Part shown: positions 1 through 24,215 of the stretch, in pieces
Numbering within the stretch: the stretch's first letter is position 1
How the letters are laid out: every line of letters starts with the position of its first letter
Origin: an uncultured bacterium
GTDB lineage: Bacteria; Omnitrophota; Gorgyraeia; Duberdicusellales; CBEUCJ01
Length of the DNA stretch: 64,000 bases
NCBI GenBank assembly: GCA_965541615.1
Contig: CBEUCJ010000001.1
Location: forward strand, 3,754 to 67,753
Direction of reading: 5' to 3'
Translations under genes and position numbers: made by a program
The notes under the pieces: generated by a model
The model's input: only the letters and a program-made list of their open reading frames with translations
The model's database searches: none
What the model was told of the DNA's origin: nothing

Positions 1-2452
1 TGATCTGTGCATTTACTTTAAATTCTCTCTTTAATCTATCCACAATTATCTCTAAGTGAAGTTCACCCATTCCGCACAAAAGAGTTTGCTGAGTTTCTGT
101 ATCTATTTCTACTTTGAAAGTAGGATCTTCTTCTAAAAGTTTAGATAAAGCTTTTGCTAATCTATCTTGATCTGCCCTAGAGTTAGGTTTAATGTTTAAA
201 AAAACTACAGGTTCTGGAAATTCCATCTTTTCTAAGATTATGGGGTTTTCAAGATCACACAGAGTATCACCTGTAGAGACTGAATTCAAACCCACAGTAG
301 CAGCTATATCTCCACAGAAAACAGCTTCGATCTGTTCTCTTTGATTAGCATGCATTCTAAATAGTCTCCCAATCCTTTCTTTTTTATTCTTTGTAGCATT
401 TAAAATGTAACTGCCTGCTTTTAATACTCCTGAATAAACTCTAAAATAGATGAGTTTTCCCATATGAGGATCTGCCTGAATTTTAAATGCTAAAGCTGTA
501 AAAGGAGCAGAATCTGAGATTTCTCTTTCTATCTCTTTATTAGGATCTTTAAAATCTATTCCTTTTACAGGAGGAAGGTCCTGTGGAGAAGGCAAAAACC
601 TAACCACTCCATCTAAAAGTTGCTGAACACCTTTATTTTTTAAAGCTGAACCACAAAATACACAAAAAACTTTATTTTCAATTACAGCTTTCCTCAAAAC
701 ACTGATTATTTCCTCTTTTTTTATCTCTTTTTGTGCTAAATATTTTTCTAACAAATTCTCATCTAAACTGGCTACCTTTTCTAACATCTTTTTTCTATTT
801 TCTTGAGCTACTTTTATTAAATCTTGGGGTATCTCTTCTTCAGAAAATTTTTCTCCCAAAGAACTTTCGTCAAATACATAAGCTTTCATTTCTAAAAGAT
901 CTATTACTCCTTTAAAATTTTCTTCTGCACCTAAAGGTATCTGTAATAAGACTAAATTTGCTTTTAAATTTTCTTCTATCTCTTTTACAACTCTAAAAAA
1001 ATCTGCTCCTTTTCTGTCCATCTTATTTATAAATATTAATCTGGGCACTTTGTACCTCTCACATTGATACCATACAGCTTCACTTTGAGCTTCCACTCCT
1101 TCTACAGCTGAAAATACTATTATTGCTCCATCTAAAACTCTTAAAGACCTTCTAACTTCTGCTGTAAAGTCTACGTGACCTGGAGTATCTATTATATTTA
1201 TTTGAGTATCTTTCCAATAGCAGGTAGTAGTAGCTGAGGTAATGGTAATCCCTCTTTCTTTTTCTTGAGGCATCCAATCCATTTGAGCTTTACCTTCATG
1301 GACTTCCCCTATCTTGTGAGAGCGTCCTGTATAATAGAGTATCCTTTCTGTAAGGGTGGTCTTTCCTGCATCTATATGAGCCATTATGCCTATATTCCTT
1401 ATCCTATCTAAGCTGATTTTTCTTTCTAAAAATTCTTCTTTGGGAATTTCTTTTTTCTCCTCTGACCTTTCTGTTTTTTCTTCTACACATGTAAGCTCAG
1501 GTTCCTTATCCTGAACATCTTGAGAGCTTTCAGATAAAGTTTTTTCAGCTACCAATTCTTCAGGTTCTTTAGATTCTGGTAAACTTTCAGACTTTTCTTC
1601 TATAGGTTTTTTATCTGAAATCTCTTCTGAAGATCTCTCTTTGATTAAAACCTCATTTGAGGTTTGAGAAATTTCTTGTGGTGTTTGAGATTCTCTTTCT
1701 ACAAACTCAGATTTCTGTAATTTTTCAATTAATCTTTTGATATCTGTTTCTTTTAATTCCAATTCCCTTTTCTTTAAAGTTAGTTCTACTTTTAATTCTT
1801 CACATTTTTCTTTCAGCTTTTCATTTTCTTCTTTTAACTTGTTATACTCTTCTATAGAGACAAAAGAACTCATCTTCTCTTTTTTTCTAAGTTCATCTAT
1901 TATCTTTAATTTTTGATCTATATCTATTTGATACCTTGAAATCTTAAGTTTTAGATTTTCTATTTCTTCCTTTAATTTTTTGTTCTCATTCTCTAAATCT
2001 TTATTCTGCTCTAAGATTTCTTTCTTTTCTTTATTTAACCTTACATTTTCAGAAAAAACCTTTTCCAATTCTTTTTCCTTCTCTTCAAGAATTCTCTTTA
2101 ACTTAATATTTTGTTCTTTTAAATTCTTAGCTTTGTTTTCTGAAATTTCTATCCATTTCTTCTGTTCTTCTAATTTTGAAAGTGCTTCTTTTTCTGCAGA
2201 TTTTGCTTTTTCAAACTCTTTTTTTAATTCTGTAAATTCATTCTTTGTCTTTTCTAACTCTCTCTTTAAAGAATTCAACTTTATTTCTAATTTAAGTGTT
2301 TCATCTTGCTCATCTTTAATAAAAACTTCTTTTTCTTTTTCCTTTTCTTTTCTTTTTTTCTTTTTAAAGGGTTTAACTTTTGGAGGAGGAAAGAGAGTAA
2401 ATAAGAGTACAGTTATACCTATTGTGATTATAAAATACAAGATAATCCCCAT
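1..2452 (-). CDS. Elongation factor G-like GTPase (C-terminus beyond window) with a ~355-aa in-frame N-terminal extension (TM helix + K/E-rich coiled coil)
   Basis: Minus-strand translation from 1384 downward gives [57 protein letters not shown]...[12 protein letters not shown], the canonical EF-G G-domain. The same frame stays open upstream to ATG at 2452, where an in-frame TAG stop lies at 2524-2522. I verified by hand that codons 2452->2272 and 1500->1382 carry no stop. No separate minus ORF is listed here in the track, consistent with one ORF running off the window edge. The N-term is [21 protein letters not shown], followed by [10 protein letters not shown] and long heptad-like E/K repeats. 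Confidence 0.7.
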
Positions 2453-2502
2453 TTTTATATAAAATATACAATAAAACTTATTATTTTTTCCAGAGTAGCA
2501 AA

Positions 2503-3576
2503 TTAAATAGAAAAGTGCGAACTAAAGAGATTAGAGAAATACTTAGAGTCAGGAACGAATCCAAAGACTTCTTTCCATACTAAAGCTGTCTCCATACATA
2601 AATAGATCGGTACATCTTTAAAATACATCTTCAGATTATCTAACATAAATTTGTAAATCTCTCTTCTTATATGTCTAAAGTACCTGTATTTATTATCATT
2701 ACTTAAAATAAACTCCCCATTTAAGATTTTGGTATCAGGGAATCTTTCTTTTATTACTTGAGGAGTGCGAGGAGGAAACCTCAAAGTACCCAAAGAAATC
2801 CATGCTATTTTTTTTGGATAAAATTTTCTTAATCTCTTAATGACCTCAAGATAAATATCTTTGTAATCAGGTGAATAAATAATAGGATCAAAATGAAACC
2901 CTACATACCACCCTTTTTGTTGCAATAGGTAAGCTGATTTCAGTCTCTTGTTCAAAGAGGCTGTATACTTTTCTTCTTCTTTTACTATCTTTTGAGGATT
3001 CAAAGACCAGCTTACAACTATATTTTTTAAAGGTTTTAAATTCAGTAAAGACTTTATATTATCAGATTTTGTCTTTAACTCTAAAATTACAAAAGGAAGT
3101 TTTTTGAAATAAAAATAAAGGATATCTAATTGAGGTAAAATATCTTCTAAAGTTAAAGAATCACAAAATTCACCTGTTCCTATTCTCATAAATTTCTTCC
3201 TTTTACTTAAAAACTGTGCTACTTTTTTAATCTTTTCTTCCAAATTCAGATAAAAACTCGTTGCTCTTATATTCTGATAGATCTGCAAATAACAGTAACT
3301 ACAATCAAAAGGACAACCTACCATGGTATCTAAAACAAAGTAACCACAACTTATACTCCCTTTTGAGCAAGGGCACTTTGAAAGAATCTTTCCTCTTTGA
3401 AGAGTAAGATAAACGTTATTTTTTCCTAAATCTAATCTTTGAGATTTTATATATAAATCTTCTTTAGAATTTAAAATAACTAAAGGTGCTTTTATTTTTT
3501 TACAAATAGAAGAGATTTCTTTTGCATATCTTTTAAAAACTGATTTATCTGTAAAGATTTTTTTTATCTTTATCAT
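2503..3576 (-). CDS. splB: Spore photoproduct lyase-like radical SAM DNA repair protein (SplB family)
   Basis: [12 protein letters not shown] CxxxCxxC motif; length and overall similarity to SP lyase family. Confidence 0.6.
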
Positions 3577-14922: not shown

Positions 14923-16455
14923 TTAATGAAGGAAGTGTCTTATTTGAGTAAATACCATTGGAATTTTGTATTTATTGCAGGCTTTGATTACTTCTTCATC
15001 TTTAATTGAACCTCCAGGCTGAATAATAGCTTTGATTTTAGCTTTAAAGGCTTCCTCAATAGAATCAGGTTTTGGAAAAAAACCATCTGAAGCTAAAACT
15101 GCTCCTTTACAGTCACCAGCTTTTTGAATAGCTATCTTTACTGCATCTATTCTTGAAGGTTGACCTCCACATACTCCCAGAGTCCTTTTATCTTTTGCTA
15201 TACAAATTGCATTTGATTTTAAGTGTTTTACTACTTTAAAAGCAAAAATCAAATCTTCTAAAGTTTTTTTTGAAGGTTTTAAAATTGTGGGCATTTTTAA
15301 ATTTTTTTTATCTATAACTTTAGAATCTCTTTCTTGGACTAAAAAACCTAAATCTGTTCTTCTGAAATCTAAATTATCAGATTTAAATTTTAGATTTATC
15401 TTACAGACTATTAATCTTTTTCTTTGTGAAAAGATTTCTAAAGCTTTCCTTGTAAAAGAAGGAGCTAAAATTATCTCTTTAAAACCTGTTTTTAATATTT
15501 CTTTTGCTACTCTTTCTGTTACTCTTCTATTAAAACCTATAATCCCTCCAAAAGCTGATATAGGATCACCAGAATATGCTTTTAAGAATGCTTTCTTTAA
15601 ATCTTTATCACAAGCTAAACCACAAGGAGAATTATGTTTTACTATTACACAGCAACTTTCTTTAAAGTCTTTGAAGATGTTTAAAACTGCTTGGATATCT
15701 AAAAAGTTATTAAAAGACAAATCTTTGCCTTGCAGTTTTTCTATTAATTCTCTTTCTGAATCTAAAAATTTATAAAGATAGGCTTTCTGATGAGGGTTTT
15801 CTCCATACCTTAGTTTCAAATCTCTTTTTAAATGCAAAAGTAAATCTTGTGTAAATTTTTTTTCTTCTGAAAAGAATTTAAAAATTTCATAATCATATAG
15901 ACTGGTTATCTTAAATACTTCTTTAGCTAATCTCTTTCTCAAAAGTAAAGATACTTTTCCTTTATTTTCTTTTAATTCTCTTATTACTTCTTTATAAAAT
16001 TCTTTAGAAGGGACTACACATACATTTAAAAAATTCTTTGCTCCTGCTCTTAAAAGAGAGACGCCTCCAATATCTATAAATTCTAAAATTTCCTTAAAAT
16101 CTTTTAATTCTTTTAATTTCTCCTTAAATGGATAAAGATTTGTAACTACCATATCTATTGTTTCTATCCCCAAAGATTTTAAACTCTTTAAATCTTCTTT
16201 TTTTTCTTTTCTAGCTAAAATCCCTCCAAATATTTTTGGATGAAGGGTTTTTAGTCTGCCTCCCAAAATCTCAGGGAATCCTGTATAATCTTTAACTTCT
16301 ATGGTTTTAATTTGAGAATTTTTTAAAACTTGGGCAGTCTTTCCAGTAGAGATTATTTTTATCTTCAACTTTTCTAATTCTTTGCAAAACCAAACTATCT
16401 CTTCTTTATCATAAACACTAACCAAAGCTGTCTTTATCTTCAAAAATTCTCTCAT
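14923..16455 (-). CDS. purH: Bifunctional AICAR transformylase/IMP cyclohydrolase
   Basis: ALVSVYDKEEIVWFCKEL MGS-like N-term plus C-terminal AICARFT region; 510 aa. Confidence 0.9.
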   Translation of the reverse strand: MREFLKIKTALVSVYDKEEIVWFCKELEKLKIKIISTGKTAQVLKNSQIKTIEVKDYTGFPEILGGRLKTLHPKIFGGILARKEKKEDLKSLKSLGIETIDMVVTNLYPFKEKLKELKDFKEILEFIDIGGVSLLRAGAKNFLNVCVVPSKEFYKEVIRELKENKGKVSLLLRKRLAKEVFKITSLYDYEIFKFFSEEKKFTQDLLLHLKRDLKLRYGENPHQKAYLYKFLDSERELIEKLQGKDLSFNNFLDIQAVLNIFKDFKESCCVIVKHNSPCGLACDKDLKKAFLKAYSGDPISAFGGIIGFNRRVTERVAKEILKTGFKEIILAPSFTRKALEIFSQRKRLIVCKINLKFKSDNLDFRRTDLGFLVQERDSKVIDKKNLKMPTILKPSKKTLEDLIFAFKVVKHLKSNAICIAKDKRTLGVCGGQPSRIDAVKIAIQKAGDCKGAVLASDGFFPKPDSIEEAFKAKIKAIIQPGGSIKDEEVIKACNKYKIPMVFTQIRHFLH

Positions 16456-17147
16456 TTACTTACACTGAATTTAAAGGTAATAAAATCTGCATCTTGAACT
16501 ACATAATCTTTTGATTCTAATCTCACCAATCCTCTGTTTTTGGCTTCGCCTATTTTTTTACAACTTATCAAATCTTGGAAACTGATAACCTCTGCTTTTA
16601 TAAAACCTTTAGCTATATCTGAATGAATCTTACCAGCTGCTTCTATAGCTTTAGTTCCTTTCTTTATAGGCCAAGCTTTTAATTCTTTCTGATTACAGGT
16701 GAAAAAGAAAATATACCCAAAAAAATCAAAAACTTTTTTGAGTAACGAATTTAAATCTTTTAGTTCTCTGCTATCTATTTTCAAAACAGGTCTTATGCTT
16801 ATAAGAAAATTTAACTCTCCTTCTTGTTTAGAAATATCTATCTCTGAGATAAATCTTTCTTTTTCTAATTCTTCTTTAAGTCTTTCAAAAAACTTTCTTT
16901 TATTTTCAGAAGTCTCTTTCAAAATCTTTTTTTCTAAAGCATCTATATCTTCAATTATTAAATCTAAAACTTTTTCTTTAGTTACCAATACTCCTTCACA
17001 TCTTTGATAAAGAGAGCTCTCACAGAATTCAACTTGAGCATAAGTAACTTTGGGAGGATTAAAGATTTCTTTTAATCTTTCTAACCTTTGATCTAAAAAT
17101 TTATGTGTGCCTATATATTCTGTGGGTCCAAAGAAAGCTATCTTCAC
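16452..17147 (-). CDS. YchF-related TGS-domain protein lacking the N-terminal P-loop
   Basis: The C-terminal 90 aa (KAIEAAGKIHSDIAKGFIKAEVISFQDL...LESKDYVVQDADFITFKFSV) align with the YchF TGS/DUF933 tail. No GxxxxGKS Walker A is present. The upstream EF-G paralog ends only 7 bp away, so there is no room for the missing G1 region. Confidence 0.6.
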   Translation of the reverse strand: MKIAFFGPTEYIGTHKFLDQRLERLKEIFNPPKVTYAQVEFCESSLYQRCEGVLVTKEKVLDLIIEDIDALEKKILKETSENKRKFFERLKEELEKERFISEIDISKQEGELNFLISIRPVLKIDSRELKDLNSLLKKVFDFFGYIFFFTCNQKELKAWPIKKGTKAIEAAGKIHSDIAKGFIKAEVISFQDLISCKKIGEAKNRGLVRLESKDYVVQDADFITFKFSVSK

Positions 17148-17154
17148 TTAAAAA

Positions 17155-19182
17155 TTATTTCTTTGCTTCTGCTTCTTTTCTTCTTTTATATTCTTCTATT
17201 ATTTGCTGAGCTATCTGAGGAGGCACAGGTTCATAATGAGAAAATTTCATCGAATAAGAACCTCTTCCTCCTGTAATAGACCTTAAATCTGTTGCATATC
17301 TGTACATTTCTGCTAAAGGGACTTGGGCTTTTATGAGTTGATTTTTTCCTCTTGCTTCCATACCTAAGACTCTTCCTCTTCTTGAATTTATATCTCCTGT
17401 AACTTGCCCCATGAATTCTTCAGGGATTATTACCTCTACATCCATTATAGGTTCTAAAAGAATAGGACCTGCCTGTTCGACTGCCTTTTTTAAAGCCATG
17501 GAACCTGCTATCTGAAAAGCTATATCTGAAGAATCTACTGGATGATAAGAACCATCATAAAGAGTAACTCTTATATCCACTATAGGATAACCTGCCAAGA
17601 ATCCTTCTTCCATAGCTTTCCTTATACCTTTTTCTACTGAAGGAATAAAATTCCTAGGGATCTTTCCGCCTACAATTTTATCTACAAATTCAAAGAATTT
17701 TCCTCTTTCTAAAGGTTCTACTTCTATCCATACATCTCCATACTGACCACGACCTCCTGTCTGTCTTTTATATTTTCCTTGCACTTTAACTGATTTTGTT
17801 ATTGTTTCTTTGTAAGGAATTTTGGGTCTTCCTAATTCTACTTCTGCTCCAAATCTTCTCTTCATTCTTTGACAGATTACATTCAAATGGAGCTCACCTA
17901 CTCCTGAGATTATCAACTCTTTTGTTTGAGGGTCTCTTTCTACTTTAAAAGTAGGATCTTCTGTACTCAATTTTTGTAAAGCTCCTGATATTCTCTCTTC
18001 ATCCTGCTTTGTTTTAGGTTTTACAGATTGAGATATGCTAGGCGTAGGAAACTCAATTTTAGGGAATTCTACTAAAAAATTCTCTTCACCTAAGCTATCA
18101 TTAGTATGAGTATCTTTTAATTTAGCTACAGCTCCTATTTGACCTGCAAATAAACTATCTACAGTTCTCTGTTCTTTTCCAAAAAGTAAATACAACTGAC
18201 CAAATCTCTCTTTTGTCTTTGTAGTCACATTATAAAAACCTGTATTTGATTTTAAAAGGCCTGTCCAAATCCTAAAAATAGTTAGTTGACCTACATAAGG
18301 ATCGAATATAGATTTAAAGACCTGAGCTGAAAATTTAGAATCAGGTTGGGGTGTTAGTTCTTTTTCTTCTCCGTTTATTTTTACTTTTAAAGGAGGTCTT
18401 TCTTTGGGTGAAGGAAAGAATTCCAAAATTACATTTATTAATTCCTCTAATCCAATCTCATTCAAAACTGCTCCACACAATACCGGAAATATTTTTCTTT
18501 CAAGGATTCCTTTCTTTAAACCTTTCTTAATCTCTTCAGAAGATAATTCTCCTGTCTCTAAATATTTTTCTAATAAAGTGTCATCAGATTCAGCTACTAA
18601 ATCTAAAAGTTTTGAATAAAATTCTGAAACTTCTTTTACTTGTGAAGAATCTTTTTCTAAAACTGGAACTACTCCTTTGAAATTCTGTTCTTTGCCTATA
18701 GGTAAATATAAAGGGATTGCGTTCTTTGTAAGATTTTCTTTGATATCATTTAAAACTTTATAGAAATCTGCATTTTCTTTATCTAATTTATTTACAAAAA
18801 ATATACAAGGCAAGTTTCTTTTTTTAGCTTCTTCAAATGCAAATTCTGTTCCCAATTCTACCCCTGAAACTGCATCTATTACGATTAGAACACAATCAGA
18901 TACACTAAGAGGAGCTATAACTTCAGCTATAAAATCTTGGTAACCTGGAGTATCTATAAACTGAATGAAATGATCTTTGTAATTTGTGTATAAATAACTT
19001 GCATTTATAGAAGATTTTCTCTCTATTTCATCTGGTTCAAAATCAGAAACTGTCGTTCCTTGGTCTACTTTACCAAATCTATTAATCGCCTGTGTTTTAT
19101 AAAGAATTCCTTCTGCTAAAGTAGTCTTACCACTTTGAGCATGACCTGTAATACTAAAAACTCTTATCTTAGAGATATCCAT
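17155..19182 (-). CDS. Elongation factor G paralog (EF-G2-like translational GTPase)
   Basis: ITGHAQSGKTTLAEGIL P-loop, DTPGYQDF, EF-G domains II-V, 675 aa. Confidence 0.8.
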   Translation of the reverse strand: MDISKIRVFSITGHAQSGKTTLAEGILYKTQAINRFGKVDQGTTVSDFEPDEIERKSSINASYLYTNYKDHFIQFIDTPGYQDFIAEVIAPLSVSDCVLIVIDAVSGVELGTEFAFEEAKKRNLPCIFFVNKLDKENADFYKVLNDIKENLTKNAIPLYLPIGKEQNFKGVVPVLEKDSSQVKEVSEFYSKLLDLVAESDDTLLEKYLETGELSSEEIKKGLKKGILERKIFPVLCGAVLNEIGLEELINVILEFFPSPKERPPLKVKINGEEKELTPQPDSKFSAQVFKSIFDPYVGQLTIFRIWTGLLKSNTGFYNVTTKTKERFGQLYLLFGKEQRTVDSLFAGQIGAVAKLKDTHTNDSLGEENFLVEFPKIEFPTPSISQSVKPKTKQDEERISGALQKLSTEDPTFKVERDPQTKELIISGVGELHLNVICQRMKRRFGAEVELGRPKIPYKETITKSVKVQGKYKRQTGGRGQYGDVWIEVEPLERGKFFEFVDKIVGGKIPRNFIPSVEKGIRKAMEEGFLAGYPIVDIRVTLYDGSYHPVDSSDIAFQIAGSMALKKAVEQAGPILLEPIMDVEVIIPEEFMGQVTGDINSRRGRVLGMEARGKNQLIKAQVPLAEMYRYATDLRSITGGRGSYSMKFSHYEPVPPQIAQQIIEEYKRRKEAEAKK

Positions 19183-21084: not shown

Positions 21085-22188
21085 TTACCTATATTTTAAA
21101 ATATAAACTGGTAAGTTTCCATAAATTACTCTCTTTTTTATCCTAAACTCTTTAAATAGATCTTTTAAAGGACTAAGTATTACTGCATTTTTCCATTTCC
21201 CTTTAAAAGAGAGTAATCTTTCTTTAAAATTTTCTAAGACTCTTTTTACCTTTCTTTTTGTTCCTATTCTCAATCCAAAAGGAGGATTGGTTACTATAAA
21301 ATCATAATTGAAATCTGCAGTCTGAGCATCAGCTAAAAAGAGATTTAAACTTAGATTTAAATTTTGAGCGTTTATTTTAGCTCCTTCTAAATGTTTTAAA
21401 GAATTATCAGAACCATAAATCTTTAATGCTTTTATATTCACTTTTTGTTTTAATTCTTCAGATAAAACTTTAAATTCCTTTAAAGGTAAAAATTTTAAAT
21501 TCCAAATAGCTAATTCTCTTTCTTTTAAATAGTTAGGGATCTTTAAAGCTTCTCTGTAAGCTTCGATTAGAATTGTGGCTGCTCCACAAAAAGGATCATA
21601 AAGAGAGTATTCCAGATTCCAACCAGAAAATTTAACTAAACTGTAAGCTAAACACGGATTTAACCCTGCCCGATGTATATAGGTTTTATACCTTCTTTTA
21701 TGGAGTCCTACACCTGTTGTATCTAACCCTATTAAGATTCTTTTCTCAATAACTTTACAGATTACTTTTATATCAGGCATCTCCAAATCAACTTTTAATC
21801 TTATCTTTTTCTTTTCTCTGTATCTATCTATTACTGCTTGACCTGTAATTTTGGCTATATCTTGTGAAGTGAAATTATGTGTGCCTTTTCTTTCAGATAC
21901 TATTCTAAAACTCTGATTTTTTTGTATAAATTCCTCAAAAGGTATACTTTTGGTAATGTAATAAATATCTTCTAAATCAGAAAACTCAGTATCTTTTAAA
22001 AGTATAGATACTCTTTCACAACTGTTTAATAAAAAATTTGCCTTAAATACTCCTAAAGCATCTGCTTTGCAGATTACTTTCCCATCTTCTTTTTTTTCTA
22101 TAAATACATTTAATTTTTCTTTTAATTCTGAATACAAAAAATCCTCTAAACCTCCTAAAGTAGAAAGCAACAACCTATACTCATTCAT
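21085..22188 (-). CDS. THUMP-domain class I SAM-dependent RNA methyltransferase
   Basis: THUMP region plus VTNPPFG catalytic motif. Start moved to internal MNEYRL (22188), giving an ATGA overlap with the upstream stop at 22185. The first 50 codons of the longer ORF lie inside the upstream gene. Confidence 0.7.
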   Translation of the reverse strand: MNEYRLLLSTLGGLEDFLYSELKEKLNVFIEKKEDGKVICKADALGVFKANFLLNSCERVSILLKDTEFSDLEDIYYITKSIPFEEFIQKNQSFRIVSERKGTHNFTSQDIAKITGQAVIDRYREKKKIRLKVDLEMPDIKVICKVIEKRILIGLDTTGVGLHKRRYKTYIHRAGLNPCLAYSLVKFSGWNLEYSLYDPFCGAATILIEAYREALKIPNYLKERELAIWNLKFLPLKEFKVLSEELKQKVNIKALKIYGSDNSLKHLEGAKINAQNLNLSLNLFLADAQTADFNYDFIVTNPPFGLRIGTKRKVKRVLENFKERLLSFKGKWKNAVILSPLKDLFKEFRIKKRVIYGNLPVYILKYR

Positions 22189-24215
22189 TTGAAGGCGTAT
22201 TTCTTTTCTTTTAAAAGACCATAAACTTCTTTTTTTATAGGAGGAGAAAATTTTAGGGGATTGAAATCTAACTGAGAAAATAGAAAATAACAGGTAGCAG
22301 AAACTGAACCTGTAGTTTTTCCACGAGGAGTCCTCCAACCATGACCTGTATCTACAAAGTCAGCTGAAGCATAAGGTAAACACCACTTCCCCTGACCTGT
22401 AGGTGAAGGTGAAATTATTATCATCTTTTGAAGTTCATTTAAAAAATAATTTGCTTTGTTTAAGAAATACAAAGCTTTTTCATAGTCTTTTTTTTCATAA
22501 TAATAATTACTCATGATTTTAAAAGCTAATACCATTTGAGCTGTCCATTCACAAGATATTACTCCTCCTCTTGGCAGATTCCGGTAAAGAGCAAAATCAA
22601 AACCTTCTACTTCTATATCTCTATCTTTTGTTTTGAACCTTACTTTTACTTTACAATTTTTTTCAGCAAAATCTATTATTTGAAAAGGGTCCATATTTAT
22701 TCTTTCTAATCTCTCAGGACCGATAGCAGCTATAGACCAAGCATAGGTATCAGTAGCTATAGTAGAATCTCCTTTCCCTCTATTTATAGGAATCTCAGAT
22801 TTGGTGTAAGAGTATTTCTTAAGCCACCTAAATACTTTATCTCTTATCCCTTTATAGAAATCATCTTGAGTTAATTCATAAAGCATATTAAAGAAAGCAT
22901 AACAGTCTAAGTTGTGTTCTGTACTATACCATCTGCATTTAGGACATCCTTTAAAACCTCCTTCTTCATCTTGCATTTTTAATAAGAACTCAGCTATTCT
23001 TTTGGCTAAATTTAGATAACTTCTATCTCCTGTAAATTTTATGTATTGCAAAACAGCTATTCCTATCCAGGCATTAGGTCCTGTATGAGTTATGTATTCA
23101 GCGACATTTCCTGTGTCTGAATAATAAGCATTAAAGAAAGCTCCTTCTTTTGAGGTCTTGGCTCTTTTATTATAAAAATCTAAAATCCGTTTTGCTCTAT
23201 CAAAGTCTTTAAATATTAAAAACTCACATACACACAGAGCTTGATCGTAAGTAAAAGCTATGTTTTTTAAGAAAGGGTCTCCTTCAAAACTGAATACCAA
23301 ACCTGTCCTTAAATTTTGGCGATTCTTTATCCAATTATAGAGGTAACTTATATTTATTTTCTTTAACTCAACTATCTTTTGCTTTAATCTAAAAAGATCT
23401 GCAGAGAACTTACTTTTTAAAAGAGCTATTTTACAAAGTTTATCTCTTAATTTTTCATTTTCTATTTTAAGAAGCAAAATTTTCTTTTGGAGATCTTTTA
23501 ACTTTGTTTCCTTTTCTTTTATCTTCTCTTTTATATCTTGATAACCTTTGGTATCTAATACACTGATTAACTTTTGTCTATAAAAATCGAGCTCAGATTC
23601 TAAAGCTTTGTATTTTAATTCTAATTCTTTTGCTTTCTTTATCTTTGCTTCATACATCTTTTTAAAATTCAAAAATTCATTATTTAATCTATAAAGAGAA
23701 TTTTTAAGTCTTTTTAAATTTTCAACTTTCTCTATATAGCTTTTAAGTAACTTTTTAGTCTGTAGATATGAAAGTCTAACTTTTACAAAAAGGTATCCTG
23801 AGATAAAGATTAAAAAACAGATAATAAGAACACTTAACTTAGGCAGGATTTTTTTAATTCTGGCATATCTTACTAATCTTTTCCTTTCTTTTTCAGAGAT
23901 TTCAGTAAATTCAACTCCCATTACATAAATATCTGAAGGTTTAGAAGGAATTTTCTTTGCCCATCTTACTGTGCCTCTTCCTACAATAGGAGGTCTGTTT
24001 AAAGGTATATTTATGAAAAATTTTATTTCTTTACCTAAAAGATTTCTTAAATCTTCTTTTATAAATCTGGCTTCTAAGGCTATGCCTCCAAAACTTATAT
24101 TTTTTGTAAAACCTTGTGACCAAGAAATTAAGACTTTTTCACCTTCTACAAACTCAAATTCAACAGGAAAAACACTATTTAATCTTATGTAATTTCTTTT
24201 TTCAGCTTTTTTCAT
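22185..24215 (-). CDS. PilZ domain-TM-coiled coil-(alpha/alpha)6 glycosidase-like fusion protein
   Basis: N-term RNYIRLNSVFPVEFEF...TKNISFGGIALE is a PilZ domain. It is followed by one TM helix, a ~150-aa K/E/L coiled coil, and a C-terminal domain with six-hairpin glycosidase-like features. Confidence 0.55.
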   Translation of the reverse strand: MKKAEKRNYIRLNSVFPVEFEFVEGEKVLISWSQGFTKNISFGGIALEARFIKEDLRNLLGKEIKFFINIPLNRPPIVGRGTVRWAKKIPSKPSDIYVMGVEFTEISEKERKRLVRYARIKKILPKLSVLIICFLIFISGYLFVKVRLSYLQTKKLLKSYIEKVENLKRLKNSLYRLNNEFLNFKKMYEAKIKKAKELELKYKALESELDFYRQKLISVLDTKGYQDIKEKIKEKETKLKDLQKKILLLKIENEKLRDKLCKIALLKSKFSADLFRLKQKIVELKKINISYLYNWIKNRQNLRTGLVFSFEGDPFLKNIAFTYDQALCVCEFLIFKDFDRAKRILDFYNKRAKTSKEGAFFNAYYSDTGNVAEYITHTGPNAWIGIAVLQYIKFTGDRSYLNLAKRIAEFLLKMQDEEGGFKGCPKCRWYSTEHNLDCYAFFNMLYELTQDDFYKGIRDKVFRWLKKYSYTKSEIPINRGKGDSTIATDTYAWSIAAIGPERLERINMDPFQIIDFAEKNCKVKVRFKTKDRDIEVEGFDFALYRNLPRGGVISCEWTAQMVLAFKIMSNYYYEKKDYEKALYFLNKANYFLNELQKMIIISPSPTGQGKWCLPYASADFVDTGHGWRTPRGKTTGSVSATCYFLFSQLDFNPLKFSPPIKKEVYGLLKEKKYAFK

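Follow-up and report, generated by a model that had tools for sequence, protein, structure and literature searches.

Does a bacterial elongation factor G (EF-G), which textbooks and kinetic models of translation treat as a freely diffusing cytoplasmic factor, exist in a form that is fastened to the membrane? The question is raised by a gene at one end of the 64,000-nucleotide stretch of DNA analysed here (hereafter the window; GenBank assembly GCA_965541615.1, contig CBEUCJ010000001.1, positions 3,754 to 67,753 of the forward strand), which comes from an uncultured bacterium of the phylum Omnitrophota. The gene (1..2452, minus strand; codons 1–817 of 1039 lie in the window and the final 222 past base 1) encodes an EF-G preceded by an extension of residues 1–343 that consists of a transmembrane (TM) helix, a basic patch, a heptad-patterned coiled coil of about 200 residues and a disordered, acidic linker some 95 residues long. 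A preliminary description of the window, made from its letters, had proposed that this EF-G is translated as a fusion with the segment upstream of it. Our reading, to which we attach a probability of roughly 0.6, is that the gene encodes an active canonical EF-G whose single polypeptide includes a membrane tether that holds the enzyme within approximately 40–60 nm of the inner membrane.

Reading frame and EF-G body

Translation of the minus strand over window positions 1–2458 gives, from the ATG at 2452–2450 (2450..2452), 817 sense codons without a stop, the open reading frame (ORF) leaving the window at base 1; the open frame running through the EF-G N-terminus into a long upstream extension is thus as first described. 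The in-frame TAG reported to precede the ATG exists and is the closest upstream stop (2524–2522), but it lies 24 codons ahead of the ATG and does not adjoin it. The ATG is the first start codon after this stop, no ATG, GTG or TTG occurring in frame between the two. With a stop frequency of about 0.083 per codon at 27.7% GC, our own arithmetic puts the chance of some 350 extra stop-free codons at about 5e-14. No Shine-Dalgarno motif stands ahead of the ATG, nor ahead of 43 of the 53 ORFs of the window; since only ten of these 53 long ORFs have such a motif, its lack is normal here. The full gene was recovered through a look-up of the neighbouring gene for an SPL-like radical-SAM protein (2503–3576), and the same unbroken gene is present in four independent assemblies (ENA ERZ27248082, Logan SRR7051073, Logan SRR7051072 and JGI 3300021502). 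The gene call is 1039 residues in L001 (11125–14244) and L003 and 1036 residues in L002, and the L004 contig stops inside the gene (919 residues). A sequencing error, such as a frameshift or a lost stop, is excluded because the four assemblies hold the identical uninterrupted ORF.

Homology to EF-G begins at residue 343–346 and the RNIGI motif lies at residues 352–356, which sets the extension at approximately 343–351 residues. The part of the EF-G body inside the window (residues 344–817; 1..1423, minus strand) comprises, according to Pfam, the G domain (587–1405), domain II (254–505) and domain III (5–220), all on the minus strand, with domains IV and V outside the window; the full protein has all five EF-G domains (GTP_EFTU, EF-G_D2/GTP_EFTU_D2, EFG_III, EFG_IV and EFG_C). 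The score for the NCBIfam model TIGR00484 is 1053.1 bits, above its cut-off of 659.4, with residues 343–1034 covering model positions 2–691 of 691, and the Thermus thermophilus EF-G aligns end to end to residues 344–1039 with 871 bits. The GTPase motifs are present, namely the G1 P-loop AHIDAGKT (residues 358–365; 1358..1381, minus strand), switch II DTPGH with the catalytic histidine, and G4 NKMD, and are invariant among the 97 aligned long members on which our family statistics are based. The tip loops of domain IV, GGRGQYGH and SYHEVDSS, encoded outside the window, are present as well, with G843–H850 and H914–S919 invariant among the same members.

Two other assignments were tried and rejected. 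EFG-II (EF-G2) is contradicted by the presence of AHIDAGKT and DTPGH and by a score of 538 bits for the EF-G2 model NF009377, below its cut-off of 890; a ribosomal protection protein of the Tet(M)/Tet(O) class is contradicted by a score of 436.9 bits for NF012153, below its cut-off of 775. Judged by its sequence, the segment 344–1039 is a canonical, catalytically complete EF-G. Location in the str operon (rpsL-rpsG-fusA-tuf) is usual, not defining, for canonical EF-G; rpsL, rpsG and tuf were searched for in the window and its flanks and none was found, and the long gene lies outside the str operon in all five lineages compared, among unrelated neighbours. The protein has the same five domains and the same GTPase and domain-IV motifs as canonical bacterial EF-G (FusA; TIGR00484; T. 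thermophilus, PDB 1DAR/4V5F), and differs from it by the 343-residue extension and by its place outside that operon.

The extension and its conservation

The extension opens with a helix of signal-anchor type (residues 2–21; 2390..2449, minus strand), the single TM helix of the preliminary description, with a mean Kyte-Doolittle hydropathy of 2.68. Behind it lies the expected polybasic stretch, a proline-rich juxtamembrane segment (residues 22–44; 2321..2389, minus strand) with a net charge of +7 over residues 24–44 and a predicted local distance difference test score (pLDDT) below 50. The following coiled coil was correctly recognized as such, its hydrophobic period over alignment columns 46–250 being 3.52 residues with 36 times the median power, against 3.6 for a plain amphipathic helix; its length is closer to 200 residues (approximately 45–247) than to the 250 first given. 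It is built of a helix 1 (residues ~45–194; 1871..2320, minus strand), modelled as one helix 47–194 or 35–194 and holding the family-conserved W100, K125, F133 and V137, a kink motif SSFVS (residues 195–199; 1856..1870, minus strand), predicted as a helix break in both models, and a predicted helix 2 (residues 200–247; 1712..1855, minus strand). In most relatives the kink reads S-x-W-V, and the window protein has F, not W, at position 197. The acidic Ser/Glu linker, also as described, is rich in proline and predicted to be disordered (residues 248–343; 1424..1711, minus strand; pLDDT 27–33; net charge −14), and terminates in a conserved junction P-x-P-(K/R)-(I/F)-x-L-x-K that is followed by x-RNIGI. 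The AlphaFold2 model computed with the 97-sequence alignment predicts, in order, a helix 2–20, a low-confidence segment 23–48, a helix 47–194, the break at 195–199, a helix 200–247, a low-confidence segment 248–338 and then a confident EF-G body, with a mean pLDDT of 80. Pfam gives no match in residues 1–349, neither Pfam nor NCBIfam gives one above cut-off in residues 1–250, and Foldseek finds no match of the extension in the PDB; a profile search of the PDB returns generic coiled coils only (myosin rod, tropomyosin, SMC, Lpp) at marginal E-values.

This architecture is conserved. An extension of more than 250 residues is present in 146 homologues; the best 120 database matches to the full protein are every one 985–1156 residues long, and all named members, long or start-truncated, bear the label Candidatus Omnitrophota or Omnitrophica. 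A strongly hydrophobic 19-mer begins at residue 1–8 in 105 of the 120 homologues, the others resembling truncated start calls. Among the 97 aligned members the EF-G part measures 685–693 residues and the extension 292–464. In the latter F133 is invariant, and W100, K125, V137, S195, W197 and L206 are conserved in at least 90%. The stalk formed by the coiled coil is 194, 201, 208 or 215 residues long in 78 of the 97, that is, it changes in steps of one heptad; insertions and deletions (indels) of 7 or 14 residues in the extension alignment keep the heptad register throughout the family. The linker varies from 53 to 172 residues (median 90) with a median net charge of −14. Lysines and arginines average 0.03 ahead of the TM helix and 5.3 in the 20 residues behind it, an asymmetry that predicts an N-out/C-in topology with the EF-G side in the cytoplasm. 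The window protein carries all of the family traits: TM helix, basic patch, heptad stalk with W100, F133 and S195-x-W197 (here F at 197), acidic linker and EF-G.

Comparison with a 77%-identical orthologue (L008) by the Nei-Gojobori method gives ratios of non-synonymous to synonymous substitution rates (dN/dS) that are lowest in the TM helix (0.05) and EF-G (0.08), slightly higher in the coiled coil (0.11) and highest in the linker (0.38), values that are rough because synonymous sites are near saturation; indels between orthologues preserve the frame. The extension is under purifying selection. In all orthologues examined anchor-stalk and EF-G form a single ORF without an intervening stop, and an arrangement as two separate genes was not found among them; in 80 genomes from other phyla, the matches of EF-G to the full protein start no earlier than residue 305–344. 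The lack of a start codon where a normal EF-G begins was likewise borne out, no ATG, GTG or TTG occurring in frame within 40 codons before RNIGI in four of the five lineages with readable DNA, the window gene included; the fifth (L005) has one GTG at −30 from RNIGI, well upstream of the normal EF-G start. Among the 120 proteins just six have a methionine at −25 to −4, and no start-type residue is conserved. At the level of sequence, EF-G and extension are made as one chain: the unbroken ORF, the conserved extension under purifying selection, the retained heptad register and the missing internal start support the fusion proposed at the outset.

The preliminary description had called a membrane-tethered translational GTPase unusual, and in the full-text literature searched we found no description of a membrane-anchored EF-G. 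The long proteins are already public, entered simply as "elongation factor G"; annotation has shortened some of them, and because several NCBI records have lost the extension in this way, the architecture is partly hidden in public databases. For the complete genome CP070797.1 (L093, 10692–13847), the annotated protein has 797 residues and the ORF 1051, with a TM helix at its start. Other NCBI records, of 756–881 residues and of about 700 residues starting with 'MPxPxF', look like truncated start calls too.

Short EF-Gs, the anchor-stalk module and neighbouring genes

A search with the EF-G part retrieved 41 shorter EF-Gs from Omnitrophota (681–721 residues, mostly about 697) at 62–65% identity, interleaved with the long ones. 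These short forms (e.g., P0287 and P0343), found in only some of the sampled genomes, have no tether and begin with an ordinary start, M-[AS]-R-x-[IV]-x-L-x-K-V-RNIG. In GCA_964629785.1 (L092, 7001–12665) a 697-residue EF-G gene lies 329 bp upstream of a 1080-residue long gene on the same strand, an arrangement that could point to tandem duplication and to gene conversion, and in CP070797.1 a 698-residue EF-G gene lies two genes upstream of the 1051-residue long ORF; none of four short genes examined is in a str operon. Within one genome, the short and the long copy share 71.5–72% identity, and only two positions are differentially conserved. The catalytic bodies being nearly identical, there is no sign of divergent function, and the tether is the difference between the two forms.

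In a neighbour-joining tree with 30 outgroup EF-Gs, long and short forms together make up one phylum-specific clade (100/100 bootstrap), in which the true short forms, those with M-[AS]-R starts, are one cluster nested among the long ones and the window lineage branches deepest. This tree does not recover the long forms as monophyletic, and its internal branches are too short to order the origins of short and long forms. Amino-acid composition, used as a proxy for a shared AT-rich genome, did not discriminate. Two placements deserve mention: the EF-G body of P0025, a long form of 1029 residues, clusters inside the short-form group, perhaps because paralogues have recombined or because the contig is chimeric; and P0339, a short EF-G that falls in the Omnitrophota clade, carries the label 'Candidatus Aureabacteria bacterium', so that either the clade reaches beyond Omnitrophota or the bin is mislabelled.

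The anchor-stalk also occurs without EF-G. A profile of 20 extensions (residues 1–250), searched against 1.84 billion representative proteins, matched 812 at E ≤ 1e-3 and 280 at E ≤ 1e-10, fragments of long EF-Gs included. Among these are stand-alone proteins and fusions to MshEN and PilZ domains, which match over positions 1–225 with E-values of 1e-19 to 1e-30, TM helix and S-x-W-V-x-K-x-E-Y motif included. The complete stand-alone proteins (205–242 residues) stop just past the S-x-W-V-x-K-x-E-Y helix; one such gene is wholly contained in an 881-bp contig, and two of about 227 residues (L009, 8001–8684; L011, 6810–7499) show conserved synteny, flanked by a TPR-repeat gene and an aminotransferase gene. 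The module is joined to the cyclic di-GMP-binding domains MshEN and PilZ in proteins of 567–724 residues (P0191, P0202, P0218, P0219, P0231 and P0267), one protein of this design being annotated as Omnitrophota (1.82 Mb genome). No Pfam model exists for the module. Its stand-alone and PilZ-fused occurrences mark the anchor-stalk as a reusable module, a putative membrane tether. A further design combining membrane, coiled coil and cyclic di-GMP is seen in the same genome as the window gene: the product of 22185–24215 (minus strand; 676 residues) has an N-terminal PilZ domain, a hydrophobic segment, a K/E-rich coiled-coil stretch and a weak match to an alpha-alpha-toroid.

The paralogue reported at 17155..19182 (minus strand) exists and encodes 675 residues, 41% identical to the long EF-G; it is not a conventional EF-G but a divergent one of EFG-II type, whose P-loop reads GHAQSGKT where the long protein has AHIDAGKT, and which carries DTPGY rather than the catalytic-histidine motif DTPGH. 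EFG-II (compare T. thermophilus EF-G-2, PDB 1WDT) belongs to the same superfamily and is found together with the long form in the same genomes. The gene has a very strong Shine-Dalgarno motif (AAAGGAGGTG), and its protein family (651–717 residues, mostly 651–687) is spread throughout Omnitrophota, every named relative being labelled Omnitrophota or Omnitrophica; the labels of both EF-G families thus place the window in this phylum. A gene for a YchF C-terminal domain without the YchF G domain (16452–17147, minus strand; 231 residues, DUF933/TGS) begins 7 bases downstream of it and is probably co-transcribed with it.

Around the long gene itself, an AT-rich spacer of 50 bp (2453..2502, minus strand) separates it from the upstream SPL-like radical-SAM gene. 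The spacer holds a single promoter-like match, TGGAAA-18-TATATT at 2492–2463, which is a hint only, since a promoter scan found matches in the spacer no commoner than in shuffled sequence. Directly downstream, L001 14297–15425 carries a nucleotidyltransferase gene (63 residues), an AbiEii-family gene and a DUF6922 gene, which look like a toxin-antitoxin or abortive-infection cassette. Over the whole window no Rfam family reached its gathering score.

Proposed tethering and its alternatives

If the long protein is inserted as its signal-anchor helix suggests, its N-terminus would lie outside the cell and the remainder in the cytoplasm. The strict-heptad coiled coil of about 200 residues would form a stalk of about 30 nm (0.15 nm per residue), most likely paired with that of a second copy, because an amphipathic helix of 150 residues would be unstable alone. 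The linker of about 95 residues, averaging about 8 nm and reaching about 35 nm at full stretch, would let the EF-G head move freely, so that stalk and linker together would give a working radius of approximately 40–60 nm from the inner membrane. Within this zone the head would act on ribosomes like an ordinary EF-G, in translocation and probably in recycling, but only near the membrane, and tethering would raise the local supply of EF-G for membrane-proximal ribosomes. Omnitrophota include nanobacteria of about 0.2 µm across. In such very small cells the zone within reach of the tether would be most of the cytoplasm; for a cell of 0.2 µm, a 38-nm shell comes to about three quarters of the cell volume, a calculation that takes this general figure for cell size as given.

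Among known systems, the signal recognition particle receptor FtsY has an acidic N-terminal region, and LepA/EF4 is membrane-associated. Both are translation or targeting GTPases at the membrane, yet neither is an integral-membrane EF-G and neither has homology to the extension above Pfam or NCBIfam cut-offs. Structures of an engineered L9–EF-G chimera have reportedly been solved on the ribosome. In this chimera (PDB 4WPO and related entries) a foreign N-terminal domain occupies chain residues 1–74 and EF-G starts at residue 75, which suggests that the EF-G N-terminus is free on the ribosome and that an N-terminal fusion need not block ribosome binding; unlike the long EF-G, the chimera is artificial, short and soluble, without a membrane anchor. 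Of the same design, with no sequence relationship and with a nuclease as its cargo, is RNase Y, a membrane-anchored endoribonuclease of Bacillus subtilis in which an N-terminal TM segment and a coiled-coil or disordered region carry a cytoplasmic enzyme of the RNA machinery, giving a membrane pseudo-compartmentalization (PMC7029143, PMC11313650).

Several points weigh against the tethering model. That the protein enters the membrane, dimerizes and works as a tethered enzyme is our inference, as is any biological reason for the tether, whose benefit is conjecture. EF-G might be set free by processing at the conserved proline-rich junction, and a few NCBI records begin with 'MPxP...' exactly at this junction, so that some lineages must have a codon there from which translation could start. 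In at least two genomes the long EF-G is accompanied by a short soluble one whose body is nearly the same; the tethered form therefore need not be the cell's sole canonical EF-G, and its role may be specialized rather than general. A 2026 preprint moreover describes S12-S7-EF-G-EF-Tu operons in some Omnitrophota chromosomes, whose EF-G may be of either type.

The alternatives differ in what becomes of the single chain. The most plausible of them, which we nevertheless consider unlikely, makes the long protein a precursor that is cut at or near the junction into a soluble EF-G and a membrane coiled-coil protein like the stand-alone family of about 225 residues, fusion serving only co-expression or release at the membrane. 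Complete genes do exist for such a module, ending just past the S-x-W-V-x-K-x-E-Y helix, the linker is predicted to be disordered and accessible, and the junction is conserved, 91 of the 120 proteins having a proline at −8 and 67 having one at −10. But residues −8 to −1 belong to the ordinary N-terminus of EF-G in the short forms too, so this conservation needs no cleavage site; the family shares neither a protease motif nor a protease gene nearby, the gene context differing in each lineage; the long form is retained in genomes that already have a soluble EF-G; and tight conservation of stalk length is hard to explain for a stalk that is discarded. A little less credence still goes to a reserve or regulatory function, in which the tether would keep EF-G apart from most ribosomes, in a pool that is inactive or seldom drawn on, while a soluble EF-G, the short paralogue where present, does the routine translocation. 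A similar reserve role has been proposed for membrane-held LepA/EF4 in Escherichia coli. Such a division of labour agrees with the short soluble paralogues found in some genomes, in one of them immediately ahead of the long gene, and with catalytic bodies so alike that location is the main difference. It is at odds with the window lineage, the deepest branch, and most sampled lineages, which within the data reached show the long form only, with the nesting of the short forms as one cluster among the long ones (in a poorly resolved tree), and with a dN/dS of 0.08 for the EF-G body, the level expected of a housekeeping protein in heavy use; besides, a tether reaching 40–60 nm would be no real sequestration in a small cell.

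That internal initiation near the junction yields a free EF-G besides the full-length fusion is improbable. The linker gene segment is purine-rich and has a GAGGAG nine bases ahead of an ATT codon (residue 337), a candidate start that was set aside as a by-product of glutamate codons: GAGGAG means little here because such codons yield it and because the genome rarely uses Shine-Dalgarno motifs (10 of 53 ORFs). The junction-initial records of relatives (MPxPxF...) and the internal starts that NCBI places inside the extension elsewhere, such as 797 residues for the 1051-residue ORF, would fit two products, but truncated starts are annotation choices, not evidence; the window gene and three of the four other lineages have no start codon up to 40 codons from RNIGI (L005 having its GTG at −30), and no start-type residue is conserved in the 120 proteins. 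Finally, the chance that the gene is an artefact, through an error of sequencing or assembly or through a recent pseudo-fusion of a coiled-coil gene to fusA, is negligible. Nothing was found in favour of this reading, and it is refuted by the agreement of four assemblies, by the fusion in 146 diverged homologues, and by frame-keeping indels and dN/dS values that indicate selection on the extension.

The membrane-tethered EF-G thus retains our preference. A stronger version, which we put forward tentatively and with considerable doubt, is that in lineages like that of the window the anchored protein is the sole canonical EF-G, probably a two-headed dimer, and drives all translocation and recycling from the inner membrane. 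If this were true, translation in these very small cells would be organized around the membrane, and the arrangement might be an adaptation to giant, mostly membrane-inserted proteins whose synthesis keeps a membrane-bound ribosome busy for very long. A preprint has described giant proteins in Omnitrophota; a tie between them and the tethered EF-G is possible as a conjecture, and the finding may bear on how proteins of 10,000–147,000 residues are completed. The anchor-stalk module may, for its part, be a general device of Omnitrophota for setting cytoplasmic proteins at a fixed distance from the membrane. An integral-membrane canonical EF-G on a stalk of fixed length, found phylum-wide, would offer a natural experiment on elongation confined in space, and bears on the supply of factors to membrane-bound ribosomes and on the organization of translation in ultra-small cells.

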